64,000 nucleotides of DNA, taken from Myxococcota bacterium. Its GTDB lineage: Bacteria > Myxococcota_A > UBA9160 > UBA4427. Positions within the stretch are counted from its first letter, which is position 1, and each line of letters begins with the position of its first letter. The DNA lies in the NCBI GenBank assembly GCA_965250285.1, contig OZ252299.1, positions 96,001 through 160,000 of the forward strand, given 5' to 3'. The notes beneath the pieces were generated by a model. That model was not told where the DNA came from, searched no databases, and saw only the letters and a program-made list of their open reading frames with translations. This document shows positions 8,481-24,566 of this stretch, one piece after another. The translations under genes were made by a program, and so were the position numbers.

Positions 8481-8529
8481 AGTGGTGGCCCAGGGCGGAT
8501 TTGAACCGCCGACACCTCGATTTTCAGTC
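8481..8529 (-). repeat. att site: duplicated 3' part of tRNA-Phe
   Basis: AGTGGTGGCCCAGGGCGGATTTGAACCGCCGACACCTCGATTTTCAGTC identical to 24489-24537. Confidence 0.95.
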
Positions 8530-8648
8530 TCCGGCGCGCCTCTACGATCACCTGCGCAGGACCACTCCCGCGCACCCCAAATGCCTGAAAATGATGAAGA
8601 TTGATGGACTCGTGGCCACCCGCGACTACGCTTTGCTGCGTTGGGCTT

Positions 8649-8676
8649 TGCTTCCGGATGCTTCCGATTTGCTTCC
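8649..8676 (+). promoter_or_regulatory. Three TGCTTCC direct repeats, putative integrase arm-type sites
   Basis: TGCTTCC at 8649, 8659 and 8670; same motif at the other island end. Confidence 0.7.
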
Positions 8677-8712
8677 AGCGTCGGTGAGCGTGGCAAAGCC
8701 GGGAGGCCAGTC

Positions 8713-9936
8713 ATGCCGAAGCTCTCGAAGCGCGAAATCGACTCGATCTCGCCCGACCCCTGTCGCGAAGTCTTTGCCTGGGACGATGACCTGAAGGGCT
8801 TCGGCGTGCGCGTGATGCCCTCGGGACGCAAGTCCTTCGTCATCCAGTACCGCTCCGCCGGACGGACCCGCCGCATGTCGCTCGGTGCCGTAGGTGTTCT
8901 GACCCCCGCCCAAGCTCGCTCGGAAGCCATTCAACGTCTCGCGGAGGTCGCGCAGGGCGGTGACCCCTCGCGCGACCGGCGAGTGGCGCGCCTTGAGCCG
9001 ACGATGAGCGAGCTGGCTGAGCGGTACCTCGAAGAACACGCGAAGCCCCACAAGAAGCCCTCGAGCTACGAGAATGACGTGCGTGGGCTTCGACTTCACG
9101 TTCTACCGGCGCTGGGAAGCGCACGGGTCAAGGACGTGACGCGGCAAGAGGTGGCTGAGCTGCACAGTCGGATGAGAGCCACTCCCATCATTGCGAATCG
9201 CACACTCGCGCTGATCTCGAAGATGTTCAGCTTGGCTCGCCTTTGGGGGATTCGAGACGACAACCCGGTCGTCGGTGTTCCGCGCTTTCGAGAGAACCGC
9301 CGCGAACGCTATCTGTCGGAAGCCGAGATCGCGGACCTCGGTCGAACGCTGCGCGAGGCGGAAGCCCAGAGCGTCGAACCCGCTTCGGCGATCGCAGCGA
9401 TTCGGCTCCTGCTGTTCACCGGCTGTCGCAAAGGCGAGATCCTCTCGTTGCGCTGGCCCGACGTGGACTTCGAGAGAGGCTTGCTCTGGCTCAGGGACAG
9501 CAAGACAGGTGCGCGGACCGTCCCCATTAATGCGCCCGCTCGGGAGATCCTCGTCAACCTGCAACGATCTCGAACCGGCGAGACCTGGGTCATTGAGGGG
9601 CGGCACGCAGGGAAACCCCTCGTCGGGTTGTGGCGGGTTTGGAGCCGCGTGCGGGATCGGGCGGGTCTCGTTGACCTTAGGCTCCATGACCTGCGCCACA
9701 CGCACGCATCAGTCGCAGCTGATGCTGGGCTCTCCCTGCCGGTGATCGGCGCGCTTCTCGGTCACGCGAGCCCCGCTACGACCTCTCGCTATGCCCACCT
9801 TGCAGACGATCCGCGTCGCAGAGGTTCCGACATCGTGGGTGCCAAGGTTGCGGCCGCAATGTTCGACGGTCCCCGCGCCGAATTGCTGGATCTACCTATC
9901 GATCCTCGATCGTTGAAGGGGGCGACCAATGGATGA
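8713..9936 (+). CDS. Tyrosine recombinase/integrase with N-terminal arm-binding domain
   Basis: GGGAGG RBS; GFGVRVMPSGRKSF; catalytic TGCRKGEI, LHDLRH, LLGH, SRYAH. Confidence 0.95.
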   Translation: MPKLSKREIDSISPDPCREVFAWDDDLKGFGVRVMPSGRKSFVIQYRSAGRTRRMSLGAVGVLTPAQARSEAIQRLAEVAQGGDPSRDRRVARLEPTMSELAERYLEEHAKPHKKPSSYENDVRGLRLHVLPALGSARVKDVTRQEVAELHSRMRATPIIANRTLALISKMFSLARLWGIRDDNPVVGVPRFRENRRERYLSEAEIADLGRTLREAEAQSVEPASAIAAIRLLLFTGCRKGEILSLRWPDVDFERGLLWLRDSKTGARTVPINAPAREILVNLQRSRTGETWVIEGRHAGKPLVGLWRVWSRVRDRAGLVDLRLHDLRHTHASVAADAGLSLPVIGALLGHASPATTSRYAHLADDPRRRGSDIVGAKVAAAMFDGPRAELLDLPIDPRSLKGATNG

Positions 9937-10288
9937 CGAAAACGATGGTTCGGGCACCCAGCGCACGAATCTGCTTGGCCTCTCGCGGTCGTTCCGTTTC
10001 GAGTTCGAGTCGGAGGACCCGCTGGAGCGGGCTCGCGAGTTCTACCAGCAACTGCCCCAGCCACTCACGGATCCGTTCATGGAGCTTGTCGGTGACTTGA
10101 TCTGTCACGGAGGGAAATCGAGTGTGGGACTCGCGAACGAAGCGTTCGCGAGGCTGATGCAAGACTCCGGTGTGCGCGCCGGGAACTGCGAGAGGTGCGG
10201 TCGTGCCTTTCTCAAGAAGAGCTCGGACAAGCGCTTCTGCCGGCCGACCTGCCGGGTTCAAGCGAATCGGGATCGGAACTTCTCGTAG
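9929..10288 (+). CDS. Hypothetical protein with C-terminal CGNR-like zinc finger
   Basis: CERCGRAF...KRFCRPTCR; overlaps integrase stop. Confidence 0.65.
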   Translation: MDDENDGSGTQRTNLLGLSRSFRFEFESEDPLERAREFYQQLPQPLTDPFMELVGDLICHGGKSSVGLANEAFARLMQDSGVRAGNCERCGRAFLKKSSDKRFCRPTCRVQANRDRNFS

Positions 10289-10378
10289 CTCCAATTCAGT
10301 TGCTGTGTGCTGCTACGGATACGCGTAGGCGCGCACACTGCGTCCGTTTGGTTCCTTGCGGTACCGAGGGGGACTGCA

Positions 10379-10645
10379 ATGGAGCTTCTAAGGCCAGACG
10401 AGACGGTCTCGTACCTTGAGAAGGTGACCGGACGGCCCGGAATCGTCACATCTCGCACGCTCAAACGATGGCGGCGAGGTCGGCGAGGTCCGAGGCACGT
10501 CCAGCTCGAGGGGCGCATCTACTACAGGGAAGAAGACCTGAGGGTGTGGCTCTCACGCGCCGGAGTTTGGAACGACGCGCGTGATCCGCGCCCGTGGGTG
10601 AGAGGCTCGGCGGACGAGAGCCCGGTCAGGAGGTCGACATCTTGA
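10379..10645 (+). CDS. Excisionase/AlpA-like HTH protein
   Basis: TLKRWRRGRRGPRHVQLEGRIYYREEDL; GAGGGGG RBS. Confidence 0.75.
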   Translation: MELLRPDETVSYLEKVTGRPGIVTSRTLKRWRRGRRGPRHVQLEGRIYYREEDLRVWLSRAGVWNDARDPRPWVRGSADESPVRRSTS

Positions 10646-10875
10646 CCTCGAACTCGGAAGCGTCATCGTCGAACGATCGACAGCGCCTTCTCACCACCGA
10701 GGAAGCAGCGCGGTTTCTCGCTGTTTCGCGCCGGACACTCGAGAAGTGGCGCCTCACGGGACAAGGGCCGGCGTACCTGAAGCTTGGCCGAAGGTCTGTG
10801 CGGTACTCGCCCGGAGAGCTAGATCGGTTCCTTCGGGGGAGCGCTCGGTCTTCGACCTCAGAGGTGCCGGTATGA
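10642..10875 (+). CDS. Excisionase-type HTH (HTH_17-like) protein
   Basis: AGGAGG RBS, TTG start; LLTTEEAARFLAVSRRTLEKWRLTGQGPAYLKLGRRSVRY. Confidence 0.85.
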   Translation: MTSNSEASSSNDRQRLLTTEEAARFLAVSRRTLEKWRLTGQGPAYLKLGRRSVRYSPGELDRFLRGSARSSTSEVPV

Positions 10876-11156
10876 GCGCCCCCGAGCCCACCGATTCGGA
10901 GACCGGCCGAGAGTCGGTTCTCGAAGGCCGCGTGCGCGACGTTCTCAGTTCGTGCCCGGAGGCGCAGAAATCGCGGTTCCTGAAGCGAGCGGAGAGAGCG
11001 GTAGCGGGTTCCCGGTCTGCCGCGATTGAACTCAAATGCCTCGAATGCTGCTGCTGGTCGCTCTCAGAGGCGCGTTCCTGCCATATCGAGGAGTGTGCGC
11101 TCTGGTCGTATTCGCCGGCTGCTTCTGCCCGCAAACAGCTAGGGGTTCAGGGATGA
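10872..11156 (+). CDS. Small Cys-rich phage-type hypothetical protein
   Basis: ATGA coupling; AIELKCLECCCWS...SC...CALWSY. Confidence 0.65.
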   Translation: MSAPEPTDSETGRESVLEGRVRDVLSSCPEAQKSRFLKRAERAVAGSRSAAIELKCLECCCWSLSEARSCHIEECALWSYSPAASARKQLGVQG

Positions 11157-11638
11157 TCGTCGAAGACGATCGCCACCTTTCCCCGAAGGATGACCCCTAC
11201 TCGACGCTGGTTGAGCCCGGCGACAGCTACGTCGTCATGCCGCTCAGAATCGAGATCGGATCGAACTACCGTCGGCTCATCGCATTCGTTCGGTGCCAGA
11301 TCGTTGAACCTGCTGAGCACTCGGGTCTTCACATCTTTCGCTTCGTGAATCTGCCGGCTTGGTGGAAACCTCGTGCGAGGGGCCGAATCGGCAGGCGAAG
11401 CAATCTCTGGGCCGATTGCGTGTCGCTGTCTGGACGAAGGCCACCCGCAGGGTGGTTCGAACTCGAGCGACTCTACGCGGCCGACTCGATGTATCGCGCC
11501 AAGATCGTCACGGTCAGCGAAACCCAGGGCGAGGGTGGGCGTCGGGAGCCGATGCATGTGTGCGAACACTACTCGCGAATCGACCGATTCTTGGGGCAGG
11601 TAGCTGGATCTACCCCGCTAGGTGGCCGGGCTCTGTAA
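11153..11638 (+). CDS. Hypothetical protein
   Basis: ATGA coupling with the upstream gene in the island core operon. Confidence 0.55.
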   Translation: MIVEDDRHLSPKDDPYSTLVEPGDSYVVMPLRIEIGSNYRRLIAFVRCQIVEPAEHSGLHIFRFVNLPAWWKPRARGRIGRRSNLWADCVSLSGRRPPAGWFELERLYAADSMYRAKIVTVSETQGEGGRREPMHVCEHYSRIDRFLGQVAGSTPLGGRAL

Positions 11639-11696
11639 CCCAAACCCTAACCACAACCGCAACACTGACGGGAACCTCAACAGCAACAGGATACGG
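11637..11696 (+). repeat. Ten degenerate 6-bp periodic units, mostly AACNNN
   Basis: aaccca aaccct aaccac aaccgc aacact gacggg aacctc aacagc aacagg atacgg. Confidence 0.6.
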
Positions 11697-11987
11697 ATAG
11701 AACTGGCCAAGGAATACGGGCACTTAGAATCGGTCCATCCATCTCGACGCCGACCTCCGGAGACGTGTGAGACATGCAATGCGCGCTTCTGTGACTGGGC
11801 GATCTGCTTAGAACGTTTTCCACCGGGTCGCTTGCTCGACCCACTCACTCGGGAATCCAGCCAGGGGGGAGGCGGCCCTTGTTGGGGCCGTCCTCTCCTG
11901 ACTCGGATCTAGCCAGATCCCCGAGCCGCTGTGGGCCATGAAATCCAGGTTGGCCATGTGATTTCGATGAAATGGTGGAGCTGAAGG

Positions 11988-12602
11988 ATGGGAGGCATTG
12001 GGTCCGGGCGCTACGGAACACGGCCACTCGTCGAGAACACGCTCAAGCTCGACGTGCTCTTGCTCACACGCAACGGGATTAGGCTGGGCGATGGCAACGT
12101 GTCGTGGAACAGGGGAGGGGAGCTGCTCTCGTCGATCGCATACAGAGTCGGCCGAGTTGGGTCCGATCCGACTTTGACGCTTCGCTATCTCGCCGGGCCA
12201 GAGAAGCGACCTATGCGGCAGATGATTCACCTTCAGTCGACACGCCCTCATCTGGGCGGCGAAAGATGGTGGTTTACCTGTCCACTGGAGGGCCGTCGAT
12301 GCCGGATGCTCTACTTCGGAGATGTTGTTGGCTTCAGCGGATTCGCTGGCCGAAGAGCACTTGGCCTCGCGTACCGGTCGCAGTGTGAGCACGCGGGAGA
12401 TCGCGCACTTCGACGAGCGCAGAAGCATCTACTTCGCCTAGGCGGCGAGGGCTGTATCGCAGATGAGATCGAGGGTCTACCGAAGCCAAAGTGGATGCGA
12501 TGGAAGACGTTCCATCGGCGGATGCTGGCTGCTCAACTGGCCGACGCGGAGAGCTGGGCATGGGCGTTCGAGCGAGTAGGCTCGACGCCCCACGATCGAT
12601 AG
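11988..12602 (+). CDS. Conserved island hypothetical protein (MGGxGSGR type)
   Basis: MGGIGSGR...GGERWWFTCP...LAYRSQ...PKPKWMRWKTF pattern, recalled from tRNA-integrated elements. Confidence 0.7.
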   Translation: MGGIGSGRYGTRPLVENTLKLDVLLLTRNGIRLGDGNVSWNRGGELLSSIAYRVGRVGSDPTLTLRYLAGPEKRPMRQMIHLQSTRPHLGGERWWFTCPLEGRRCRMLYFGDVVGFSGFAGRRALGLAYRSQCEHAGDRALRRAQKHLLRLGGEGCIADEIEGLPKPKWMRWKTFHRRMLAAQLADAESWAWAFERVGSTPHDR

Positions 12603-12802
12603 CGGTCGTCAAGCCTGACTCCGCCCCAGCGACTCGATGCCCCCCCCAATGTGTCTCGGACGTGATATGAAGCATCAGTCTCATTCTCCGCTTCGCGCGA
12701 CCCCTTGCGATCGTCGCAAAGCGTCGAATCTACAGCTAGTTGCGAAGGCCGACGCTGATATCGCTAGGATCTTACTCGGCGAGAGCGGCGATGGGCGTCG
12801 CC

Positions 12803-12826
12803 GTCGAATACAAGTTAGGCGGCGGC
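12803..12826 (+). other. Array start: attI-like or secondary recombination site (GTTAGGC core at 12814)
   Basis: GAATACAA-GTTAGGCGGCGGC; complementary to GCCGCCGCCTAAC ending the first cassette; no attC left arm upstream. Confidence 0.65.
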
Positions 12827-12871
12827 TTCAGCCGGGAACGGCCAGGCTTGAGCCCAGCCGTCCCCAGACCT

Positions 12872-13117
12872 TCACTCATCTCTGAAGTAGTAGTTCCGCG
12901 GCTCGCCGTCGTACTGCCCGGTCCTCAGGCAGCACTTCTTGAAAACCGGCGTCCCGAGCCGCACGGACACAAGTCATTCCGCCCGAGCTTCTCCTCGAGC
13001 TCCTTGTTCCCGTGCACGACACGTCGGCCGCGCTTCACATGCGTCTCGCTGGGGTAGCCCTTCCGGCGCTTACTCGTTCTCTCGAAAGCGCGGGAGGTCG
13101 TCGTTCTTGGTTGCCAT
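12872..13117 (-). CDS. SEC-C motif mini-protein interrupted by two frame changes (recoded gene or pseudogene); antisense cassette
   Basis: AGGGAGGT RBS + [11 protein letters not shown]; +1 frame [10 protein letters not shown]...[14 protein letters not shown]; then -1 frame [22 protein letters not shown]. Confidence 0.7.
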
Positions 13118-13170
13118 GGGGCACCTCCCTTCTTGTGCGGGCCGTGGTGGCCCGGGCTTTGGGCGCGCAG

Positions 13171-13199
13171 GTTGTACCTCAGGTTGGGTGTGCAGTCCA
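13171..13199 (-). promoter_or_regulatory. Putative sigma70 promoter of the SEC-C cassette
   Basis: TGGACT-17 nt-TACAAC on the minus strand, followed by a CGGGCC/GGCCCG hairpin before the RBS. Confidence 0.4.
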
Positions 13200-13236
13200 C
13201 GCTGCGCAGGCCACCAGCAATTTCGGGCACGCCGCC

Positions 13237-13367
13237 GCCTAACAAGCCGTTGCAGCGGACTTGCTCCCGCTGAGACGATCTCGGGTCGTGGTAGACTGGC
13301 GAGCGTCCGAGGCGTTCAGCCACTGCGAGCAAGGCCGCCGCAAGCCGCTGAACGCCGACCGTTAGGC
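13237..13367 (+). repeat. attC site 1 (131 bp)
   Basis: GCCTAAC...GTTGCAGC...GCTGAAC...GTTAGGC; R and L boxes with extrahelical base. Confidence 0.93.
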
Positions 13368-13376
13368 GGCGGGCGC

Positions 13377-13757
13377 GTGCGCACACTCGCGGCATTGCAT
13401 CCGATCCTCCTCGCTGGGTGCCCGGCGACATACTGGGCTCAGATTCAGAACGAGTCCTCAAGCCGTCTCGTAGCCGTTCCGCCGTTCGAGTCCTCGTACG
13501 CGGTTGCGATCTCATCGGGCAGTTCTGCGCGGGTCTCCTGGTATCAGCCATGCCTAGTTCTTGTCGACGTCGACCGAGCCGAAACCAGTTTCTTTCAAAC
13601 GTTCCCGTTCCCCGACAACGTGGCGAGAACTCGCATGTTCTCGGTCAGACTCGAAGCAACGTACTCAGAGGGCCGTCTCTTCCTCGAGGCCGAAGACGGG
13701 TCCCGATTCGAGGTGCCCCGCGTCGCCGAGTGCTCAGCTGCCACTCCCGCCGCCTAA
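13377..13757 (+). CDS. Cassette ORF, putative lipoprotein
   Basis: GTG just after attC, LLAGC lipobox, TAA stop inside the next attC core. Confidence 0.7.
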
Positions 13758-13882
13758 CAAGCCGTTGCAGCGGACTTGCTCCCGCTTAGGCGATATCGGG
13801 CCGTGGTAGAATCACGCTCGTCCGAGGCATTCAGCTGCTGCGAGCAAGGCCGCCGCAAGCCGCTGAACGCCGACCGTTAGGC
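13752..13882 (+). repeat. attC site 2 (131 bp)
   Basis: Same architecture as attC 1. Confidence 0.93.
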
Positions 13883-13896
13883 AGCGGGGCCCGGAG

Positions 13897-14139
13897 ATAG
13901 GACGCTACAAGTTCAAACTCGGGAACAAGCCCAGGCGCAAGCGCCGTCTCGATTCCGGACGGTCGCGTCTTCCCGGACCCGAGCGCCCGGCTGAACGCCC
14001 TGAAGTATCCGATAGGCGTCTGCTCTCGTTCTCCGACGCGAAGTGGCGCGTCCCCACATTCTCAGAGCTCCTGGCCTTCGCTGCAATCGCCAGCATTTTC
14101 GCTGTGATCGTCGCGTCGGTCTATTGGCCGGGGCCCTAG
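13897..14139 (+). pseudogene. Cassette ORF without canonical start (ATA); basic N-terminus and C-terminal TM helix
   Basis: ATA GGA CGC TAC... open to TAG 14139; ends LLAFAAIASIFAVIVASVYWPGP. Confidence 0.45.
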
Positions 14140-14225
14140 GTGGGGCTTCCTCTGCTTCGCTTCAGCGTTCATGAGTATCTCTGCCACTTGACTCAGGCTT
14201 GGCACTCGTGTCTGCATCCGCCGCT

Positions 14226-14356
14226 GCCTAACAAGCCGTTGCAGCGGACTTGCTAACGCCGAGGCGATCTCGGGTCGTGGTAGACTGCCGGGTGTCCGAG
14301 GCGTTCAGTCGCTGCGAGCAAGGCCGCCGCAAGCCGCTGAACGCCGACCGTTAGGC
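14226..14356 (+). repeat. attC site 3 (131 bp)
   Basis: Same architecture as attC 1. Confidence 0.93.
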
Positions 14357-14365
14357 AGCGCGACC

Positions 14366-14776
14366 GTGAGCCGGGCCGATGGACTCGTCCTGCATTCTCG
14401 ACAAATGAAGCACTCGCGCTGGCTTGCAAGGGGCTTCGCGACGCTTGCGATTCTCAATTCGATTCAGCGGGCGTGGCCTCAGGCCGCCCTGTTTACTGCG
14501 TGCGCCGTCGTGTTCTTCGCATCCACTCGATCAAACTTGAACTGGCTGCTCCTTTCAGACTCCATCGAGTTGCCGAGAGGTCCTTGGCGTCAACCGCGCT
14601 CGCTTGATCTAACGAAGCTGGCTTCGTGGCAATTCTTCCAGCCGACGAATGAGCTTACGCTGACCTTCCGAGATTCCTCCTCTAAGAAGCTGAGCCTTAG
14701 CATTCTAGAGCCAGACTCCCGCAACGATCTCGTTCGTGAACTCGAATCCCGCGCACCCGGTAGACACGTCACCTAG
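14366..14776 (+). CDS. Cassette ORF, small membrane-associated hypothetical protein
   Basis: Fills the space between attC 3 and attC 4; hydrophobic N-terminal half. Confidence 0.65.
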   Translation: MSRADGLVLHSRQMKHSRWLARGFATLAILNSIQRAWPQAALFTACAVVFFASTRSNLNWLLLSDSIELPRGPWRQPRSLDLTKLASWQFFQPTNELTLTFRDSSSKKLSLSILEPDSRNDLVRELESRAPGRHVT

Positions 14777-14787
14777 CGACGCGCGCT

Positions 14788-14918
14788 GCCTAACAAGCCG
14801 TTGCAGCGGACTTGCTAACGCTGAGGCGATATCGGGTCGTGGTAGAATCTCGGACGTCCGAGGCGTTCAGCAGCAGCGAGCAAGGCCGCCGCAAGCCGCT
14901 GAACGCCGACCGTTAGGC
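14788..14918 (+). repeat. attC site 4 (131 bp)
   Basis: Same architecture as attC 1. Confidence 0.93.
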
Positions 14919-14921
14919 GGC

Positions 14922-15389
14922 ATGGCGAATCCCCTGCTAACAACGCTTGCTGCTGTCGCCCTCGTATGCTGCTCGGGTACGGTGTCTCAGTCGAACATCG
15001 ACGGCGAGCCGACATCCCATTGCGAGCCAAAGCCACCGATAGAGTACGCTGCCTATGGCGTCGTCTTGAGCATCTCATCATCGAGTTGCATAGACGCCTC
15101 TGCACCGCTTCGTGATGGTGCCGGGTACGAATGGCTGTACGTCTACGATACGTATACCTTCCGGAATTCAGAGCTAGAGCTAGCGGCGCGCAGCTATGGC
15201 GAATCGTCCGAAGCTCACTTTCTCCGCCTTTCTGAGTCGGGCGAATCTCGATTCCTCACACACTCCGACTTCGACACTCCCATCGTTCTCGCGGCGGTCC
15301 AGTATCTATCCGAAGCGGGCAAATCCGAGCTCACGTGGCTCGACCCTCAGAATGACCTCAACGGCTATTCGCCAGTACCCTCTCGGTAG
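14922..15389 (+). CDS. Cassette ORF, putative secreted protein or lipoprotein
   Basis: MANPLLTTLAAVALVCCSG signal; fills the cassette. Confidence 0.7.
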   Translation: MANPLLTTLAAVALVCCSGTVSQSNIDGEPTSHCEPKPPIEYAAYGVVLSISSSSCIDASAPLRDGAGYEWLYVYDTYTFRNSELELAARSYGESSEAHFLRLSESGESRFLTHSDFDTPIVLAAVQYLSEAGKSELTWLDPQNDLNGYSPVPSR

Positions 15390-15402
15390 GCTGAGGCATT
15401 CC

Positions 15403-15533
15403 GCCTAACAAGCCGTTGCAGCGGACTTGCTAACGCTTGAGCCGATTTGGGTCGTGGTACCATGCCGGCTATCGATGGCGTCTCGGCGCGCTGTGCCAAA
15501 TCGGCGCAAGCCGCTGAACGCCGACCGTTAGGC
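15403..15533 (+). repeat. attC site 5 (131 bp, more divergent centre)
   Basis: Conserved ends GCCTAAC/GTTAGGC, variable centre. Confidence 0.92.
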
Positions 15534-15573
15534 AGCGGAGGTTCTGGCACCGTGACCATGGGAAGCATCGTCG

Positions 15574-16806
15574 GTGTATAGCTTGATCGTTTCTCACCAG
15601 TTCAGTGACTGGGAGGGCAGAGCCTTCCAGTTCAACAAGGGACGCTTCCTTGAGTACACGAGCGACGCGATAGCAGAGCAGTTGTGGCCCCTGTCGACCG
15701 AGGCCATCGAGTGCCTCAAGTCGTGGCCGTGCATTCTGATGGACGAGGGGCGAGCGGAGGAGCTCGTTCGCATCGCCCGCATATCGGAGCTTCAGGATCT
15801 TGGCGACGAGATTTGGCTAGCCGTCGATCTCGTTCCGACCAAAGTGCCCATACTCAACGACCACCTTTGGCGAGTCCGGGATGAGCTGGACGTACGGCAG
15901 TTCGAGTTCAGCCGGAACCACTGGGCAGTGAAGGAGCGGGACCTCTTCAGAGTCCTTCGGGCAGCCGGGCTCGATTGCGAGAGCTCCGCGAGCGGCGCCG
16001 TGGAGGAGAGGCCGCTTCCCGCACCTACCCGGGCCTCCTTGATCGCGGCACGAAACTCGATCTCCAACTGGACTCATACTGAAATCGACGATCTGCTGCT
16101 GGAAGCGGGCGTGGCGGGTCTATCTGCGGGGCGAGGGTTGGGCAGCCGCCGTGACCGCGCCAACGCGATCGTTCAGTTCGCGATCGCGAACCCGTCGGAA
16201 GTAACCGCAGAGAACTCTCTGTTCTCCGCCTACCTCGTGAGGCGATCTGTCGGAGCTGGCGATGGAGACGCGGAGGATGCCTCTTCGCCTCTGATTCACG
16301 AGGGCGCTTCCGTGCCTCAACCACAAACCGGCGACGGCTCCACCCCCCGATCCTCCAATCGGGTCTTCGTGGTACACGGGCAAGACGAGACTGCTCGCAC
16401 TGCGGTCGTCGCTTTCCTTGAAAGCCTAGGATTGGTTGGAGTCGTCCTCCATGAACAACCGAACATGGGTCGTCATCTTCTCACGAAGTTCATCGACGAA
16501 GCGGACCTAGCAACTTTCGCCGTAGTCCTTATGACAGACGACGACGTAGGAGGTCTCAAGGGTCAGGAGCTCGCGCCCCGGGCTCGCCAAAACGTGATCC
16601 TAGAGTTGGGCTACTTCCTTGCACACCTCGGTCAGGCAAGCGTATGCGCTCTTGTCGCGCCCGGCCTGGAAACGCCCTCGGATTTCGACGGCATCGTCTA
16701 CATCACCATGGACGATGATCAACGATGGCAAGAAGAGCTGAAGCGCGAACTCTTGGCTGCGAAGATGCCTGTTGTCGAAGCCCCGAATAGCGCATCCGCT
16801 GGCTAG
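15574..16806 (+). CDS. TIR-like (CAP12/Pycsar-type) domain protein with N-terminal accessory domains; candidate defence gene
   Basis: RVFVVHGQD...LHEQPN...FAVVLMTDDD...RARQNVILELGYF...PSDFDGIVY. Confidence 0.85.
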   Translation: MYSLIVSHQFSDWEGRAFQFNKGRFLEYTSDAIAEQLWPLSTEAIECLKSWPCILMDEGRAEELVRIARISELQDLGDEIWLAVDLVPTKVPILNDHLWRVRDELDVRQFEFSRNHWAVKERDLFRVLRAAGLDCESSASGAVEERPLPAPTRASLIAARNSISNWTHTEIDDLLLEAGVAGLSAGRGLGSRRDRANAIVQFAIANPSEVTAENSLFSAYLVRRSVGAGDGDAEDASSPLIHEGASVPQPQTGDGSTPRSSNRVFVVHGQDETARTAVVAFLESLGLVGVVLHEQPNMGRHLLTKFIDEADLATFAVVLMTDDDVGGLKGQELAPRARQNVILELGYFLAHLGQASVCALVAPGLETPSDFDGIVYITMDDDQRWQEELKRELLAAKMPVVEAPNSASAG

Positions 16807-16935
16807 TAGGGGCTTGCACTTGACAACGGACAGCTGGGCGTTCCTAGGTTCGGTAGCGTTCTGGCGACGGGACTTCTGTAGTTTGGTGCTGACGGTCAGC
16901 GCTGTATGTCGCAGCTGAAACCCGATCTTTTGGGC
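16801..16935 (+). repeat. Decayed attC site
   Basis: GGCTAGT...TTGCACTTGAC...GCAGCTGAAACCC...TTTGGGC; preceding TCCGCTGGCTAG is nearly complementary to the cassette start TTAGGCAGCGGA. Confidence 0.6.
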
Positions 16936-16974
16936 AGCACGCTGCCTGGTTGCCCTGCGCGTTCCAGTTGATCA

Positions 16975-17952
16975 ATGGCGCTTGACCACTACGTTTCTCA
17001 GGTTCATCTCCGCGGGTTTGTCGCATCGGACCTCGGCAATCGAATGTTTGCGACTAGCAAGAGCACGCTCAAGAGGTTCACGCCAACGCCCAAAGCCGTC
17101 TGCAGAATCGAAGAGGGAAGCACCAACGACTACTTGAGCGATCCGCGTGCTGTCGAGGACTTTCTGAAGCTCATCGAGCCGAAATACAACTCCGCGGTCG
17201 ACTCTCTCCTGGCCTCTGACATTCACGATGACGTGATCATGACGCTGGCCGGCTTCGCCGCGTACGTCTACGTATGCTCTCCCGCAGGTATGCGACTTGC
17301 CATGGGTCCGCTTCGCGCATCTGTGGAGGCGACCGCCGAGATTCTAGACCGGCAAGGCGAACTCCCGCCGATACCACAAGGGCTCGGTGCATCCTCGATC
17401 AGGGAGCTCTTTGAGATGCAGGCGCTCAAAGTTGACGTAGATCCGAAGTTTCCACAGGCAATGGGAATCTCGCAGATCGTTCAGCTGGCGGCTCAGCTCG
17501 GCAACTTCCCTTGGGAGATTCTTCGAAATGAAGAGCGAGGCAGCCCGTTCTTCACATCAGACTTTCCAGTCGCGCTACAGCAGAGTTCCGATCCTCGTAT
17601 CATGAACAGGATTGTTCCGCTCACGCCTAAGCTAGCGATTCGAATCCTCCCGAACTTTGAGTCCAGGACGGATGAGCCAGACCTCTCGTTCTCCGGCTTC
17701 AGGTACCGAGTCCGTACCCTGCGCCGCAGCGAAGTTCGAGTAGTCAACGAGCTGCTCGTTCGTGCTGCGGAAGACTTCGTGTTCTACTGCGAAGATCACG
17801 CCTGGACGCCGAGGTTCATCGAACGAAACCGACACTACCGAACTGAATCCGTGACCGAGAGGATCCCGACGCCCACGGGCGGCGAGCTTCAAGTCAGTGG
17901 CCAGCGAATCGCGCCGTTTCGGCGACCGCCCGCGGCTGTAGGATCAGCCTGA
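16975..17952 (+). CDS. DUF4238 domain protein
   Basis: DHYVSQVHLRGF, FFTSDFPV, IVPLTPKLAIRI. Confidence 0.78.
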   Translation: MALDHYVSQVHLRGFVASDLGNRMFATSKSTLKRFTPTPKAVCRIEEGSTNDYLSDPRAVEDFLKLIEPKYNSAVDSLLASDIHDDVIMTLAGFAAYVYVCSPAGMRLAMGPLRASVEATAEILDRQGELPPIPQGLGASSIRELFEMQALKVDVDPKFPQAMGISQIVQLAAQLGNFPWEILRNEERGSPFFTSDFPVALQQSSDPRIMNRIVPLTPKLAIRILPNFESRTDEPDLSFSGFRYRVRTLRRSEVRVVNELLVRAAEDFVFYCEDHAWTPRFIERNRHYRTESVTERIPTPTGGELQVSGQRIAPFRRPPAAVGSA

Positions 17953-17965
17953 GTGGTTGCCCGCG

Positions 17966-18087
17966 GTCTGGCAAGCCGTTGGATCGGGCCGCCCCCAGCT
18001 GCGGCGGTATCGGCGTTGGTACTTTTTTTGGCAACTAGCCGGGTGCATTCTGCGAAGCCGGTCAGCAGCTGGCCGATGTCGCTAGAC
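17966..18087 (+). repeat. Decayed attC-like site
   Basis: GTCTGGCAAGCCGTTGGATCGG...GCCGGTCAGCAGC...GCTAGAC. Confidence 0.5.
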
Positions 18088-18130
18088 GTCGACCGTTTGG
18101 CAGTTTGAAGCACGAGGAAACCAGTAGAGC

Positions 18131-19333
18131 ATGACTGCTCCTTCGAACAAGAAGTATCGGGCCGCACTTGTTGCAATATTTATCAGCGGCGGTGTGCTGG
18201 CAGCTCTGGTCGGGCTAGTTCCCTTCATACTTGGTAACGCACCGCCGGTTCCCGTACTTGAACTGACTCCTGCTGAGAAGTACGGCTATGCACCGATGAC
18301 TCTTGTAGCCAACGGCAGCCGATCCTCAGACCCCGACGGCGATTCGCTAACTTACGCTTGGCGCTTCAACGGCCAGGGCGAAGCTGAAGTGTCATCGCTC
18401 TTGGAGAAGCGAATTGCTAGGGGAGGGAAGTACCGGCTTGAGTTCCAGGTCTCGGATGGAAGCCACAGTCTCCCACCCCTCATCGAGTTGATCACCGTTC
18501 TCCCGCCGCTGAAGGATCTCGAAATCCCACCGCTGGCCCAGGACACCGTCCTGACTCATCCCGACGTGACACTCGTTCTGCCTCCAGAAATCGTAACGAA
18601 CGGATTCGGCCTTACGATCGAAGCTGGCGGCATCAAGGCAGGCGACACGAAGATCGTCTCTTTCATCAAGCCTAAAGCCGATCCCGTCTCGCCAGGGTCG
18701 AACGGTTCACGAGGAGGGCGGACAGGGATTCACGGCGACCCGGGTGAGAATGGAGCTGATGGATCAGATGGCAACGATGGCAAGTCACCTGGGCCTATCG
18801 TGCTGAAGGCCCCCTTCCTGTCAGGGAACCTTGCGATATCGAACCGTGGACAGAGTGGCGGAGACGGCGCGCCAGGGGGATCTGGGGGAAGTGGCGGGAG
18901 CGGTGCGAACGGACGCAACCGCGGCGGAGACGCAATCTGTTCAAACGATGTGCGACCCGGCAATGGCGGTAACGCTGGGAGGGGCGGCGATGCGGGTCGG
19001 GGCGGCGATGCGGGTGATGGAGGCAGCGGCGGCGATGTCACCGTCATCGTGGAAGATATTGATGCCCAGATCACGGTCGATGTTTCGCCGGGCTCACCAG
19101 GTATGCCGGGAGAACCTGGAACGCCCGGGCAACCTGGCTCTCGAGGAACTGGTGGTAGGCGGAGCCACTGCGGGGGCGGGGGGAGTGACGGAGGTGCGAA
19201 CACCGCCGGATCCGAACGGCCCGAGGGAGCGCCCGGCTCGACTGGCCACCGCGGCAACATTAAGTTCGTGATCGGTGGTCTTGAGCAGAATTATGCCACT
19301 AGCTCGGCCACACTTCGGAGATTGAGGAAGTAG
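18131..19333 (+). CDS. Membrane-anchored PKD/REJ-like protein with Gly-rich collagen-like region
   Basis: N-terminal TM; NGSRSSDPDGDSLTYAW; long G-x-y runs. Confidence 0.75.
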   Translation: MTAPSNKKYRAALVAIFISGGVLAALVGLVPFILGNAPPVPVLELTPAEKYGYAPMTLVANGSRSSDPDGDSLTYAWRFNGQGEAEVSSLLEKRIARGGKYRLEFQVSDGSHSLPPLIELITVLPPLKDLEIPPLAQDTVLTHPDVTLVLPPEIVTNGFGLTIEAGGIKAGDTKIVSFIKPKADPVSPGSNGSRGGRTGIHGDPGENGADGSDGNDGKSPGPIVLKAPFLSGNLAISNRGQSGGDGAPGGSGGSGGSGANGRNRGGDAICSNDVRPGNGGNAGRGGDAGRGGDAGDGGSGGDVTVIVEDIDAQITVDVSPGSPGMPGEPGTPGQPGSRGTGGRRSHCGGGGSDGGANTAGSERPEGAPGSTGHRGNIKFVIGGLEQNYATSSATLRRLRK

Positions 19334-19797
19334 CGGCGGCTCAGGAATGTTCCGGACGTGGCCGCCACATGGCACCGCGTTTCAGCGGATCGGCAGAACC
19401 TCGGTCCAATCGAACTCGGCTGCCAACTCGCACAATGCTCTGGGCGCAGGCTCGACCATGGCAAACGCTGTATTTGGCCGCGGTACCCCGACGTACGATC
19501 CCCGCGACCTCCTGAGGCCACTTCGCATCAAGCCGGTTGCGAAACCGACACAGGCATAGGGATTCTAAACACTCGGTCAGGCATCCGCGGAGCTGTAATC
19601 ACGCGCGGTGTTGGGCCCGGACGACGCGGCTCACCGATGTGGCGATCAGCTGGAATGCTCCTCATCGATCCGAAATGCCGCATCAAACAACGAGAAGGCA
19701 CGGCCATGCCTTGACAACAGAAGTGTTGTTGGCCGCAGGCGCGTCTGCCGGACCCAGTCGTGGTGAGCTGAACACAGAACATGCCACTCCGGTCCGG

Positions 19798-20292
19798 CTA
19801 AATCGGCGCAATTGTGAGCGTGATCCCGGGCAGATCGTTCACATCGTCGTCAAGGCACTCGTCATCACTCGCATGCAACGTGACCACGATCTTTCGGTTC
19901 TCGATGAGCCACCCATCACTCAGGTTGGTGCTTGAGCGCTCGCTCCACCCCGCCTTGCCCAGGACCTCTGCAATCGCAGAAGACAGACCCTTGGCTTCGC
20001 TGACCGCTTTGGACGCCGACTGGCGGCACCACTTCACAGCGAGCTCAGGGGAGCTCCCTGGTGACCCTGTTACTTCACAAGCCGAGCTGTTCGGCGGTAA
20101 CTTCTTACACTTCCACCAATGATGAGTGTCGTCCCACATCTCCAAGTCCTTCGCCCCTCTCATCGAGGAGAAGTCTGACTCCGACGCTTTGATCGCTGCG
20201 CGTAGAAACTCTTCAACGCTCTCAGCACCTGCGGCTCCCGGGATGGCAATTGAAGCCAATATGACTGCAATAGTCATCACAGCTGATCTCAT
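19798..20292 (-). CDS. Secreted hypothetical protein
   Basis: GAGG RBS, signal peptide, four Cys. Confidence 0.6.
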   Translation of the reverse strand: MRSAVMTIAVILASIAIPGAAGAESVEEFLRAAIKASESDFSSMRGAKDLEMWDDTHHWWKCKKLPPNSSACEVTGSPGSSPELAVKWCRQSASKAVSEAKGLSSAIAEVLGKAGWSERSSTNLSDGWLIENRKIVVTLHASDDECLDDDVNDLPGITLTIAPI

Positions 20293-20309
20293 ATCCTCTA
20301 CCCCTCGTT

Positions 20310-21137
20310 CTAGAGACCGAAGTTCCGCCTGCCGTAGCTGAATGCTTGCGAGAATCGAGTTGCACCGCGGAGCGCGAGTTCCCAACCAGCGGTCGCAGCT
20401 TGGAGACGCTGTGCCGGTGTGCCGTGGTGACCACGTGAGTTGAACGCGTAGTCACCCTTGTCGAAAACTGAACGCGCGGCACCTCGCGCATCGAAACGTG
20501 AGCCATGAGCAGTCTTGAATCCGAGATACCAGCCAGCCACGAAATCGGCCAGGAGTTCCATCTTCACGGTTGTTCCTACGGCATTCGCATTGAACTCAGC
20601 GATGTGAGCCCACTCATGAGCCATAATGAAGACGGCCGCACCCTCCCAAGCCAATGACTGCTCTTCTTGCTCCTGCTTGAGGAGATTGACACCGAAGCAA
20701 ACGGACCCGTGAGAACTCCCGAGGAAGGGGTCACTCGTGGCGAAGGCATTAGGACCGTCGGAGTCGTCGAAGAACGCAAACCCTGGTCGGTAGCCCATTA
20801 CGTCACCCAGCACCCGCGTTTCGAGCGAGAACGCCTGATCGATGTAGGGCCAGCCGGTGCGCTCAAGTAGCTCGAAGTTGGATTGGAGGGCTCTCGAGTC
20901 AGCCCGGTTGAGTGTGCAGCCTTGGTCAAGCGAAAAGGTCGCTCGGTCGCCACGCGTCTGCCTGCTCTGGCTACCATCGCCCGCTGATGGCCAACCGGCG
21001 CCACTCGATCCGCTGCTGCCCCCTCCCTCTTGATTCGAGCTTTCGCCTGGCCAGCCGCTCGCCAGCCCGAGCCTGGAGTAGGAACACGAACCCGCCGCAA
21101 CCCAGGCGGCGATAGACAGGAATGTCCTTCGGTCCAT
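20310..21137 (-). CDS. Exported zinc metallopeptidase (HExxH), Tat-like signal
   Basis: MDRRTFL; GPNAFAT, MAHEWAH, ELLADFVAG, HHGTPAQR. Confidence 0.8.
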   Translation of the reverse strand: MDRRTFLSIAAWVAAGSCSYSRLGLASGWPGESSNQEGGGSSGSSGAGWPSAGDGSQSRQTRGDRATFSLDQGCTLNRADSRALQSNFELLERTGWPYIDQAFSLETRVLGDVMGYRPGFAFFDDSDGPNAFATSDPFLGSSHGSVCFGVNLLKQEQEEQSLAWEGAAVFIMAHEWAHIAEFNANAVGTTVKMELLADFVAGWYLGFKTAHGSRFDARGAARSVFDKGDYAFNSRGHHGTPAQRLQAATAGWELALRGATRFSQAFSYGRRNFGL

Positions 21138-21163
21138 CCGACAGCCCTCCTCGGGCCAGATGT

Positions 21164-21655
21164 TCAGGAGTATTTCTTGATGCGAATAAAGACGTAAGGC
21201 TTGGACCCTGTAGAGGCGGTAAGGGTGATGCTCATCTTGTCTAGGGTGACGAGGCCAGAGCTCTGCCTTGTGTTGGTCAGTACCCAAAACGACTCGCTCT
21301 TGTAGTACTTGCCTGACTTCGAGTCAGACTCCTTGTGCTCGACCTTGACGCGTCCTATTCCCTCCACAACCTCCCATTCGCCAGTGAAGCAATCCGAAAC
21401 ATCCGAGAACATCGACGAGAAGAACGCGGAACTAGCGCTACGCGACATCCCTCGCCACTCGCACTCCACATGATCGCGAGAGGAGTCACAAGCCGAGTCA
21501 TCGGGAACAGAGGTAGGAGCGGACCCCTTCCCAAGTGCCCCGATCATCGCCCTCAAGTCTCGACAGACCTCACCAGCATCGGCGGGGCTCGGCGATGCGA
21601 TACCCAATGCTACGATCGTCGCAGCAACGCGCGAAAGAGTTCGACCGTCAGCCAT
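21164..21655 (-). CDS. Secreted hypothetical protein
   Basis: GAGGAG RBS, signal peptide, four Cys. Confidence 0.6.
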   Translation of the reverse strand: MADGRTLSRVAATIVALGIASPSPADAGEVCRDLRAMIGALGKGSAPTSVPDDSACDSSRDHVECEWRGMSRSASSAFFSSMFSDVSDCFTGEWEVVEGIGRVKVEHKESDSKSGKYYKSESFWVLTNTRQSSGLVTLDKMSITLTASTGSKPYVFIRIKKYS

Positions 21656-21817
21656 CAACGTCTCCTCGGCGCATCGGTCGTCAACCGCCGACGCCGTTGT
21701 GAAGAAAGCTCTCAGCCCGAGCGCGACATGCCCCCGTGCGGTGAACTTTTGAGTTCCCAATAGCGCTGCGCGAGGCGAGTACAGTTGGAGCCCGTCCACC
21801 GCTAAAGGTCTGGCTGG

Positions 21818-22108
21818 TCAGCGTCCTAGGTCCGTCACAGCCCACCGAACCATGCACTTCCACCGTTTCCAGGTGGCTGCGTCCGAGTCCTCCTCGCAGT
21901 CGCAGCTCTGGATGTTCACGTGCTTCTTCCCATAGGTGGCGATACTGCTCGTCTTAAGTTCCGCCATCTCCAACGCGCTTGAGCAGGCGTCGATCTTTGA
22001 TCCTCCGACTCCAATCTCGTGCCCGGTGGCATCACCAAGCGCAAGTGAGGCGCTGGAGATGGATATGACACCAATGGCCCCGGCCAGGTACGTCCAAGTG
22101 CTATTCAC
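21818..22108 (-). CDS. Small secreted Cys-containing protein
   Basis: GAGAGG RBS, signal peptide, AC...SCDC...WKC. Confidence 0.6.
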   Translation of the reverse strand: MNSTWTYLAGAIGVISISSASLALGDATGHEIGVGGSKIDACSSALEMAELKTSSIATYGKKHVNIQSCDCEEDSDAATWKRWKCMVRWAVTDLGR

Positions 22109-22159
22109 CCGTACACCTCTCTACCAACGCCGACCTCAGAATTGCTGCGTCCAAACAGA

Positions 22160-22450
22160 TCATGGGTCTGGCAGGCATTCGACGAGCTGGCAGAGCTTCT
22201 CGCAGGCAGGTGGCTTAAGGCCGCACTGGTGTCGACCTGGCTTCGGTACACCTGCATCGTTGAAGCCGCAGCCCGGAGAAGGCCTGATCTCTTCCCGCAG
22301 CTCTCCACCGGGACAAAAGTCGCCAGGATCAGCCGGCTCGAACCTGGGCCCGGCTCCCTCTCTGCCGGGTGCGGTCGACGTATCGTCGTCAGCGACTAGA
22401 GGTCCGACGCATAGGAGTGTCGTAGCCGCGATTGCAAGAAGACACCGCAT
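22160..22450 (-). CDS. Possible small secreted Cys-rich protein
   Basis: MRCLLAIAATTLLCVG signal, six further Cys; co-oriented with the cluster. Confidence 0.4.
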   Translation of the reverse strand: MRCLLAIAATTLLCVGPLVADDDTSTAPGREGAGPRFEPADPGDFCPGGELREEIRPSPGCGFNDAGVPKPGRHQCGLKPPACEKLCQLVECLPDP

Positions 22451-24406
22451 TACGACCACGAGCGTTGTCTCCGCTTTGGGTCGCCGACTGCGGCACCGAC
22501 GAGTGAACCTCAGTTTGGAATCTCTTGCAGACTCAGGAGGTATCATCGATCGTATTGTACCCAACTCTGGCAATCCCTAAACGCTCTGCCCTCACCCACC
22601 TCGCGATGCACGCAGCAGCGGCTCAGTCGTAGGCGTTTCTACGCGTGGCCACTCTTCACCTCGACTCCTTCAGACTGCCCCGCTGGGGATTGACGATGCG
22701 GTTGCCGAGGGAGGAGACCTTTGCCGTCATCTCGAGTCGGTAATTCGAGGAATCAACATGGGCTGCGTTTAAAGACTCATGAGCGACCTCTGGGGTAGTG
22801 AAGCTCAACTCGTTTGCGCAACACATCTACGCGTACCGCATCTCGATTGGGTTCGATAGATATGCGATTGCTCACATTCGCCCGGCCTCATTCAACTGTT
22901 CCGAGAAGATTCGAGCCGCGCACTCATGAAGGCCATCCACTCTCAGTGCTCTCGCGAAGCGGGATCGAGCTGCGTGGCCCGACGCCATCTCCAGCTCGTG
23001 CTCCTCGTGATCTGCTACCGAAGCGATCTCGAGCGCCATCGCGTCCGAAGCGTGTTGAGTAGGCGCCATCACCAACGGGACGCAGTACCTAACCGCGACT
23101 TCTCGTGACACCCCAACTCCGTCCACGATCTGGCGATTGAACCTTGGAATCCATCCAGCGTGCACGACCTTGCTTGGCCCGCAACACCGAAGTGTGCCTG
23201 AAACCCGCCGGACGTGCCGCAGCCTCGATCCCCTCAGAAACCAAAGCATCTGCCAGATACGGAATGACCTAGGGTGCGGCATTGAACGCATGGCGGCTGA
23301 CATGTCACCGGTCGGGCGGGGATCGGTAGGCTGCAGATAGGATCGGTCCCCATACATGCAGTTGGCAGACACCATGTCGAAAAGGCACAGCGCTGGCGTT
23401 CGCTGAGTCTACCCAGCGATGCGAATAGACAAGGTCGCGAGCCGCCGGCTAACGACGTTCACCGGCGTGCGGACAAGTCCTGTGCCCCAGACCCTTGATA
23501 CTCGGATGCCATCTACCCACCCCAAGTGAAACGCGTGCCGGCGGGTGCACAGTGGGCTGTCGATGGCTGCTCGCGTCCGGAGAACTCACTTCGCCACCGC
23601 CGTCGATTCCGTTTTCGTGGTTGCCTCACTTTCGGTTGGCTGAACCGTATTGGGCAGTCTCACCGGCGCGTCTCTCTCGTAGCCGGCGCGGATCGCACCC
23701 GCGATCGGAGATTCGCAGTGCGTTCGGAACGGATCGGTACCGACAACCAGCCCACAGTGCCCGCGCTGAGAGCTCGTTCGTTCTGAGTTTCGGGTCTATT
23801 CGCGCTGCAACGCCACACGTCCGCGCCGGAATCAGAGACTTCGGCCTAGAGCGCGATCACTAATCTTCCATCGTCGAGATGGTCATTCATGTGCACGCGA
23901 AGCACGTCTCGGGGGACCACTCGTACTTCAGATACTCAGGTACGGGGTAGGTGTCAGGAACGACTTCTCGCTCGAGTTCCTTGGACCACGTTGCGATCCA
24001 GGAGGCCTGCGTGCCTCAGCAATGAACTCCTGAGTCACTGGATCGATCGTCGACGGCTTGTCACGTGAACACGGGCGCCGTTTTCATGCTCAAACAGGAA
24101 CAAGGGTGGTTGGTTTGTGCCCGAGGTCAGCCCCTAAATCAGAAGGCGGTTGGACCCTCCCATGCTGCAGGGTCTTCTTTGACTGTGCCAACACAGAACC
24201 CGATTAGAGGCTCTTGGTCTTCCGCAACTATCCCGGCCACCTCGACGACTTGCAGAGCTCGACGCACAGACACGATCTCAAGCTTCGTGGCCAGACTGGC
24301 TACTTGTCTGGCAAGTCGTGAGATTTGCTGAGGAGTTGTTGCGTCATCCGCAGCCCACTCGGCCATGTAACGGATGGCCGAGCGCCGGGTGTGACGGAGT
24401 GCCCCG

Positions 24407-24424
24407 TGCTTCCGCTGGGCTTCC
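24407..24424 (+). promoter_or_regulatory. Two (T/G)GCTTCC repeats, putative arm-type sites; IHF-like site nearby (TAAGTGATTGTTT, 24466-24478)
   Basis: Same motif and 11-bp spacing as at the left end. Confidence 0.6.
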
Positions 24425-24490
24425 GGCAACTCGACCCAGCGAGCGATTGCCGAGGGCGAATCCCTAAGTGATTGTTTTGTAGGGGAAAAG

Positions 24491-24566
24491 TGGTGGCCCA
24501 GGGCGGATTTGAACCGCCGACACCTCGATTTTCAGTCGAGTGCTCTACCAACTGAGCTACCGGGCC
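24491..24566 (-). tRNA. tRNA-Phe (GAA)
   Basis: GGCCCGGTAGCTCAGTTGGTAGAGCACTCGACT-GAA-AATCGAGGTGTCGGCGGTTCAAATCCGCCCTGGGCCACCA, 76 nt with CCA. Confidence 0.97.

Follow-up and report, generated by a model that had tools for sequence, protein, structure and literature searches.

Arrays of integron cassettes without an integrase gene nearby have been treated as a class since 2016, under the name CALIN (cluster of attC sites lacking an integron integrase; PMC4889954), and their number is close to that of complete integrons (2961 versus 2760; PMC9024848). Their origin is regarded as an open question for which four routes have been proposed (PMC4889954), and action on them in trans has already been suggested (PMC9668308; PMC11389934). 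CALINs are known from conjugative elements generally (PMC11389934), and one has been found on a conjugative plasmid (bioRxiv 2025.06.18.660453). Because searches for attI were possible only in class 1-type integrons (PMC4889954; PMC9024848), CALINs are usually read as relics or donors. Here we describe such an array in a window of 64,000 nucleotides (the whole stretch of DNA analysed, G000:C1:96001-160000) from a Myxococcota bacterium whose genome is a single contig of 6.25 Mb. The array lies inside a 16,057-bp island at the 3' end of a tRNA-Phe gene (8481-24537; positions without a prefix are those of the window) and is headed, as judged by sequence comparison, by a genuine attI site, here called a dock, with no integron integrase gene (intI) adjoining the array.

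The dock is part of a solo Pc-attI module (12603-12820, plus strand) in which a -10-like hexamer, TAGGAT (12765-12770), and a hairpin (12786-12803) accompany the attI core, with the predicted crossover, G/TTAGGC, at 12814. We scored it with a 23-position position weight matrix (PWM) built from 21 attI sites downstream of intI in relatives, with host and island excluded. IntI relatives occur in 100 of the 193 genomes of the order, and attI was readable in 21 of the best 29 loci examined besides the host's, the other eight being too short, otherwise oriented or without a site. The island site scores 24.2 and ranks first among 12,497,790 genome positions, followed by the host's own attI (23.0) and then by a position scoring 17.4. 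The first-pass annotation had spoken of an attI-like dock, and given this ranking we conclude that the site is a genuine attI. Its relationship to the host integron is suggested by longer alignments. The 211-bp spacer between the last core gene of the island and the crossover aligns with the 208-bp spacer between intI and attI in the host (z 4.6; 0 of 1000 shuffles), the host attI ties for the best match to the dock over 200 bp, and a short hairpin and a -10-like hexamer are present in both regions. Such a -10-like hexamer is found at -44 to -61 in 21 of the 30 sites examined, and a 12-base hairpin segment is shared between the dock and a solo dock of the sister genome G080. We consider it likely that the dock derives from an integron of this lineage.

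One alternative is that a chance secondary (attG) site took up the first cassette and that others then stacked at one another's attC sites. The integron integrase IntI does accept, as insertion sites for cassettes, targets that have no more than a GWT consensus (bioRxiv 2022.09.11.507474). The island site, in contrast, carries the full attI signature of the clade, ranked first of 12.5 million positions, plus the hairpin and the -10-like box, and entry of this kind is largely refuted by the PWM result and very improbable. A short local match had also suggested that the end of the upstream gene, which encodes a 204-aa protein, might be the 3' remnant of an intI. This reading is ruled out, since a profile search found no intI 3' remnant in the island and the C-terminus of the 204-aa protein aligns with those of its family members.

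Downstream of the crossover lie five intact 131-bp attC sites, starting at 13237, 13752, 14226, 14788 and 15403, and two decayed ones. A covariance model (CM), which includes the five intact island sites by construction, recovers attC6 (16801-16935) at E 1.8e-4 and attC7 (17966-18101) at E 1.1e-11, and a profile built from relatives only recovers attC6 at E 2.7e-8. Core and inverse core agree at 12-13 of 13 bases in cassettes 1-5. The array had initially been placed at 12.8-19.3 kb; the seven attC sites bear out its presence, and its extent is shorter than claimed, with the cassettes ending at 18.1 kb and the PKD-domain gene beyond lacking an attC. In an alignment of 22 island and host attC sites, seven pairs have changed on both sides, and none of 500 shuffles reaches the covariation score, the structure tested having been taken from that very alignment. 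The bottom strands of attC1-5 fold with z values of -1.8 to -3.6, with the canonical long hairpin as the minimum free energy structure in four of the five, and the hairpin with extrahelical bases that is characteristic of attC sites in complete integrons is found; the decayed sites do not fold in the same bottom-strand test.

All seven cassettes are on the plus strand. Cassette 1 (12814-13367; 13/13) carries an inverted, frame-broken SEC-C gene (PF02810; minus strand, ~12885-13119) and attC1 (13237-13367). This gene shows two apparent frame breaks, and a short-read contig is identical there, so they are not assembly errors. Cassette 2 (13361-13882; 13/13) comprises an open reading frame (ORF) at ~13383-13757 and attC2 (13752-13882), and cassette 3 (13876-14356) ends in attC3 (14226-14356) and is a diverged homolog of a cassette found three times in the host integron. 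Cassette 4 (14350-14918; 13/13) contains an ORF at 14405-14776 and attC4 (14788-14918), and cassette 5 (14912-15533; 12/13) an ORF at 14922-15389, lipoprotein-like by eye, and attC5 (15403-15533). A TIR-domain gene (15574-16806; PF10137, E 2.5e-31; PADLOC PDC-S35, E 1.8e-54), which by its sequence is a candidate anti-phage gene, precedes attC6 in cassette 6 (15527-16935), and a DUF4238 gene (16975-17952; PF14022) precedes attC7 in cassette 7 (16929-18101). In a separate observation, an extended -10-like motif, TGnTAnnnT, faces the next cassette in all five intact island attC sites and in 49 of 49 strong host sites, suggesting a possible promoter built into every attC.

A genome-wide search for an intI with the same 131-bp attC family found one. 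The host encodes a single IntI above the cut-off (5,462,834-5,463,778; 439 bits, no stops), which lies 5.35 Mb from the island. The gene points toward its array and is co-oriented with ~63 attC sites of the island's attC family, of which the first 49 are strong matches (G000:C1:5464424-5490069) and the distal ones are decayed. Three identical copies of one cassette in this array (G000:C1:5467438, 5477538 and 5481036) are a sign, at the level of sequence, of recent IntI activity. The island's attC1-5 match host attC sites at 120-127 of 131 bases versus 98-106 for those of relatives, and attC7 is closest to a 135-bp host subtype (107/139). For attC6 there is no counterpart type in the host array; its best match is an attC of genome G044, from another family (107 matched bases, score 183, versus 87 and 106 for the best host attC). 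In G154, from a third family, there is a cassette-like copy of the TIR gene of this cassette, 74% identical and with an R'' box at its end. Both relationships would fit loading in an earlier host, and also a foreign cassette that arrived in the present one.

There is, moreover, an age gradient in the island, with the intact attC1-5 nearest to attI and the decayed attC6-7 furthest away; decay sets in after five sites here and after 49 strong ones in the host array. Stepwise loading in trans would produce such a gradient and is in keeping with an attC6 of a type that the host array lacks, and we consider it very likely that the cassettes were loaded in trans by the host IntI. That an integrase is borrowed from the host had been proposed in the first-pass annotation; an intact IntI with the same attC family is indeed present, and the loading itself is what we infer.

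Docks without an integrase are not confined to this island. Searches of the order's 193 genomes with two attI patterns returned 31 and 20 matches, versus 2 and 1 for a reversed control, and after removal of the island, 5 repeats and 16 intI-adjacent sites, 29 sites were fetched. One has a frame-broken intI and 28, in 192 relatives, have no full intI in the stretch fetched, although three of these have less than 1 kb of upstream sequence. An attC follows in 14 of the 28 (by a profile partly trained on those sites), and a first cassette with a matching inverse core in 10; many of the others lie at contig ends. In 6 of 11 genomes the solo dock resembles the intI-linked attI of the same genome (68-89% over 91-290 bp). 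At two solo docks, L267 (E 5e-33) and L074 (decayed), the attI comes after a remnant of the 3' end of intI, which shows, on sequence evidence, that truncation of intI is one route to a solo dock. In G221, a 100%-complete genome of the same class, one attI is linked to intI and four are solo; these sites are 73-90% alike, and each has a first cassette. Across 401 genomes sampled from the phylum and scanned for the attI pattern, four matches outside the class compare with seven control matches, none with an attC, which is chance level; twelve matches in IMG/VR, none with an inverse core or array, were likewise taken as chance. Solo docks thus appear to be a trait of the lineage.

In G068, which belongs to the same order and another family, a solo attI is again found within an island. 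This 9.5-kb element lies at tRNA-Glu between 28-bp att repeats and contains an integrase, a helix-turn-helix (HTH) gene, a D5-type primase-helicase, the solo attI and cassettes: the first cassette agrees at 13/13 bases, and two attC sites are followed by a third that is interrupted by an IS110 gene. No IntI above the cut-off was found in this genome, which is 89% complete. Since an unrelated island carries a solo attI and cassettes, the coupling of island and dock appears to have arisen at least two times with different cores, that is, by convergence. The integrases of the two islands are dissimilar (tblastn E 0.04), and this bears on the idea that the tRNA-Phe island's own integrase, the only recombinase in the element, built the array. 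That integrase is of the arm type and reaches 29 bits on the IntI model TIGR02249, where the cut-off is 265, and the attC sites belong to the family of the host integron. We regard construction by the island's own enzyme as highly improbable.

The boundaries of the tRNA-Phe island are well defined. A 49-bp direct att repeat (8481-8529, minus strand) is 100% identical to 24489-24537, and this second copy, with tRNA-Phe(GAA) at 24491-24566, forms the right boundary (24489-24566, minus strand) according to the repeat and the tRNA call. Exact copies of the repeat number only two in the 6.25-Mb genome. With att repeats at a tRNA 3' end and an intact integrase, the island has the features of an integrative element; its GC content is 60.7% versus 68.6% for the genome, and in G080 the tRNA-Phe lacks the island, its flanks there lying on different contigs. 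We compared the assembly with short-read contigs from three runs of one study, possibly of the source sample. One contig of run X1 covers 8500-13261 with 0 differences, another of run X3 covers 12374-13182, and a third covers 15510-24518, again without differences. Because these contigs cross the 12.6-12.8-kb junction of core and array without differences, the junction is not chimeric, and the concern that the assembly might be faulty there is removed. The proposal that an assembly artefact joins island and array could still appeal to the attC repeats, which break short-read contigs, so that the order of cassettes rests on the genome assembly. On the other side, attC ends terminate both the 8500-13261 and the 15510-24518 contig, and cassettes 2-5, which are absent from the host array, are each recovered as one clean contig. 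An artefact is hardly credible. A contig suggesting a joint of 13004 with 24541 was set aside, being a single contig with a 20-base side.

Taking these observations together, the best explanation, and one in which we place somewhat better than even confidence, is that a tRNA-Phe element acquired a stand-alone dock, is loaded by the host IntI and carries its cassettes with it when moved. Where intI points toward the array, Pc-attI would lie downstream of the gene as a detachable unit of ~200 bp, and the single chromosomal IntI could still act on copies that have no intI. The tRNA-Phe island would contain one module of this kind, filled stepwise, the host IntI loading one cassette at a time with the newest beside attI, and the island would take its cassettes along whenever a helper moves it.

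Several results weigh against this explanation or parts of it. When only the last 100 bp are compared with the host attI, the island site is merely sixth of 2,872 GTT-core sites, and over 70 bp its nearest neighbours are attI sites of other families; a generic sigma-70 scan of the dock found no promoter. The present host array contains no identical copy of any island cassette, cassette 3 having only a diverged homolog there, and so gives no sign of recent traffic of cassettes between island and host. The three short-read contig sets, unable to bridge a 49-bp repeat, yielded no attP or attB joint. A primase, relaxase, capsid or terminase cannot be recognised in the island, where unnamed genes could hide a primase analogue, and the host genome gave no TerL or VirB4 match. 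In the G068 island, the integrase and primase are frame-broken. Finally, an upstream integrase is missing from 26 of the 28 solo sites, most of which come after ordinary chromosomal genes, so that the dock in the island may be a further copy of this chromosomal kind.

The last of these results leads to the alternative of a resident island, which integrated long ago, received a solo attI copy that the host IntI filled, and moves no more. It would also account for the host types of attC1-5 and attC7, for the solo dock present in G080 where the host has none, and for the lack of a recognised replication or transfer gene. It fits poorly with the 100% identical att copies, the intact integrase and the low GC content of the island, with the non-host type of attC6, and with an island in G068 that holds a dock in a genome where no IntI was found. 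We consider a resident island rather unlikely.

The islands that share a core gene with the tRNA-Phe island bear on whether the dock is a hotspot of the element, as the first-pass annotation had it. We collected 160 loci of the 204-aa protein family (the best 80 of at least 488 confirmed in genome contigs and the best 80 of at least 457 in metagenomes), of which 88 are informative, with at least 2 kb downstream. None of the 88 carries an attC array beside the gene, by a heuristic that is a weak null, having missed all real arrays of relatives, and a relatives-trained attC profile, biased to the attC sites of this order, gave a best E of 0.23; the single array that the heuristic reported (L122) turned out to be a tRNA. 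This result, too, counts against a dock that belongs to the element. The genomes of the order contain nine such loci in 8 of 192, with no array; the closest homolog (G143, 52%) is on a contig that stops ~165 bp past the gene, too short to tell. Close relatives of the island integrase (40-43%) occur in 3 of the 67 genomes of the family, on uninformative contigs of less than 4 kb at tRNA-Pro or without a tRNA. In 40 loci viewed more widely, a tRNA is present in 28 and an integrase match in 22, and the 204-aa family seems typical of tRNA islands. Since 0 of 88 homologous loci carry an array, the dock does not appear to be a conserved hotspot of this element family, and the claim of a cargo hotspot falls away in favour of convergent capture.

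Such a pattern could also arise by a one-off capture, in which the front of a small integron, attI and cassettes together, was acquired all at once and the array has not changed afterwards. The arrayless relatives, the solo docks with intI remnants, which show that integron truncation occurs, the lack of an identical cassette in the host array and the frame-broken cassette 1 would all be in keeping with it. Mixed attC origins and an intact-to-decayed gradient within seven cassettes argue otherwise, as do proximal attC sites that are 92-97% like those of the present host and the absence of an intI remnant from the island. We judge a single capture to be improbable and retain loading by the host IntI of a dock within a tRNA-Phe element.

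How far the element still moves is a separate matter. The identical att copies, the intact integrase and the unoccupied tRNA-Phe site of G080 fit mobility, and we give slightly less than an even chance to the possibility that the island can still excise and has been transferred between hosts together with its cassettes. The element had been called phage-satellite-like, with no capsid, terminase, conjugation or intI gene. The second part agrees with our searches, which recognised no capsid, terminase, relaxase, type IV secretion system (T4SS) or intI gene among 22 island ORFs (Pfam), 22 (NCBIfam) or 20 (PHROGs). Satellite status, in contrast, is unproven, because no primase, capsid, terminase or relaxase is recognisable. 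At most two of the five PICI (phage-inducible chromosomal island) core components can be seen, and what points to a satellite is the integrase, the HTH genes and a gene weakly like phage DUF669 genes, the last being the sole, weak phage-leaning sign in the island. A phage as the helper, in place of a conjugative element or vesicles, seems less likely than not.

The left arm of the island contains the att-bounded, arm-domain integrase and excisionase-like core that had been described, and the perfect 49-bp repeats, the integrase motifs and two HTH_17 genes confirm this description. The tyrosine integrase (8713-9936; this and the following core genes are on the plus strand) is of the arm-binding, non-IntI type, with Arm-DNA-bind_3, SAM and Phage_integrase domains (PF13356, PF14659 and PF00589; phrog_1, E 4e-71) and R-K-HxxR-H-Y catalytic motifs. 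It is followed by a gene for a 119-aa protein with a Cys cluster at its C-terminus (9929-10288; weak PHROG matches only) and two HTH_17/excisionase-like genes, at 10379-10645 (PF12728 at E 1.7e-4, below cut-off; phrog_66) and 10594-10875 (PF12728, E 2e-12; TIGR01764, E 1e-5; AlpA at E 0.02, below cut-off); a MerR-like PHROG match of these genes has E 7e-4. A 94-aa Cys-rich protein (10872-11156) has a homolog (tblastn E 2e-12) in a second small host island near 1.419 Mb (G000:C1:1416500-1420200), which lies beside tRNA-Arg with a serine resolvase and an ATPase-like gene. The DUF669-like gene (11153-11638) encodes a 161-aa protein (Atlas 0.94; clusters 50-100% viral; recognition 1962, below 2300) with homologs next to HTH genes in 3 of 192 relatives, and its single-sequence model is unusable (predicted local distance difference test, pLDDT, 34).

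The last core gene (11988-12602) encodes the 204-aa 'MGG-GSG' protein of a large unnamed family (4938 clusters at E<=1e-3) with the conserved motifs W-F-x-C-P and K-P-K-x-M-x-W. It has no match in Pfam, PHROGs or NCBIfam, and, as a single query, no relative in IMG/VR. Its structure is predicted with a pLDDT of 91.6, and fold searches with the model returned generic helical matches only (Z<=6.6; no Foldseek match at E<=1e-3), a result that does not imply a new fold. Beyond attC7 lie a gene with PKD and Gly-rich repeats (18131-19333, plus strand; PF18911) and the right-arm cargo (19798-24429, minus strand), small unnamed genes for mostly secreted-looking proteins that the attC search does not mark as cassettes: at 19.4-24.4 kb no attC was better than E 0.02, and two candidates, 23278-23378 on the plus strand (E 0.02) and 23443-23543 on the minus strand (E 0.2), were not accepted as decayed attC.

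The surroundings of the solo docks in other genomes are varied. One of the G221 docks (L295-L299) lies ~300 bp past tRNA-Leu, with no att repeat within 6 kb. In G080, a solo attI array (L288, G080:C40:3190) begins right after a gene shared with the host (G000:C1:1068530), where the host has no dock; docks are evidently gained or lost between sister species. Near that position, the host has a small gene (G000:C1:1068630-1068860) with an in-frame TGA in a CxxU-like position, noted by eye, and the genome has a tRNA-Sec; we take this gene to be a possible selenoprotein gene of the Rdx/SelW kind. An attC is cut right after its R'' box by an IS110-family gene at L067 (+2133) and by a similar end like that of an insertion sequence (IS) at L074 (+1485) and L294. 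The last of these (G154:C181) has an extra decayed attI downstream of a TIR homolog, and G089 (L266, G089:C204) has two attI modules in tandem ~870 bp apart, which lie beside a decayed phage-type integrase and were counted as ambiguous. At L078 (G176:C3:233372), a divergent integron of classical orientation has a frame-broken intI, in a lineage that is mostly co-oriented.

If these findings are read as we propose, a CALIN with an intact attI would be an active acceptor. An attI consensus, a cognate IntI and a complete genome are all available, which opens loading in trans to a standard assay. If the island also moves, sedentary integrons would gain a route for long-range exchange of cassettes, and one kind of island cargo hotspot would gain a defined enzyme. 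Defence hotspots of satellites are said to be swapped by unexplained recombination, in a report whose text does not use the word 'integron' (PMC13586616), and defence cassettes are the subject of bioRxiv 2024.07.02.601686 and 2024.07.02.601719. We offer with much reservation the broader idea that small helper-dependent islands repeatedly recruit bare Pc-attI docks and act as integrase-free shuttles by which sedentary integrons of different families exchange cassettes. If true, each host's IntI would add cassettes from its own library and the island would take them onward, defence genes included, and the integron in these bacteria would be a distributed system in which a single integrase serves several docks, mobile ones among them.

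On the features examined, the locus does not appear to be a complete integron, a PICI, a P4-like satellite or a relaxase-bearing integrative mobilizable element (IME). With a sedentary chromosomal integron of the inverted-integrase type, one of which the host has, it shares the attI, the attC family and the gradient, but it has no intI and lies in an att-bounded island. Mobile integrons on islands and plasmids likewise place an integron array aboard a mobile element. Those of class 1 in SGI1-type IMEs have their own intI and arrived by transposition, whereas the tRNA-Phe island has the dock only, and no relaxase was found in it with Pfam or NCBIfam. PICIs and P4-like satellites (as defined for SatelliteFinder, bioRxiv 2022.09.14.508007) resemble it in size, in tRNA integration, in the order of integrase then HTH regulators and in candidate-defence cargo; the difference is that the island, beyond its integrase, shows no recognisable primase-replicase module, capsid morphogenesis gene or small terminase (TerS), and no match to Psu, Delta, Sid, Ash or alpha in Pfam, PHROGs or NCBIfam. 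As in attG insertions and SALINs (single attC sites lacking an integron integrase), cassettes lie away from intI and would be placed by IntI in trans, but the target here has attI character and is a full attI, not a GWT site.

The array is closest to a CALIN, whose definition it satisfies with more than two attC sites on the same strand, no intI nearby and an IntI elsewhere on the replicon. A full-text literature search, with most subscription journals and supplements outside it, returned no attI-headed CALIN and no attI dock in a tRNA island. Two things set it apart from known CALINs: the array sits inside an integrative element, and it is headed by an intact attI with a promoter-like box, such that it can accept cassettes and not only donate them, acting like an integron with an outsourced integrase.

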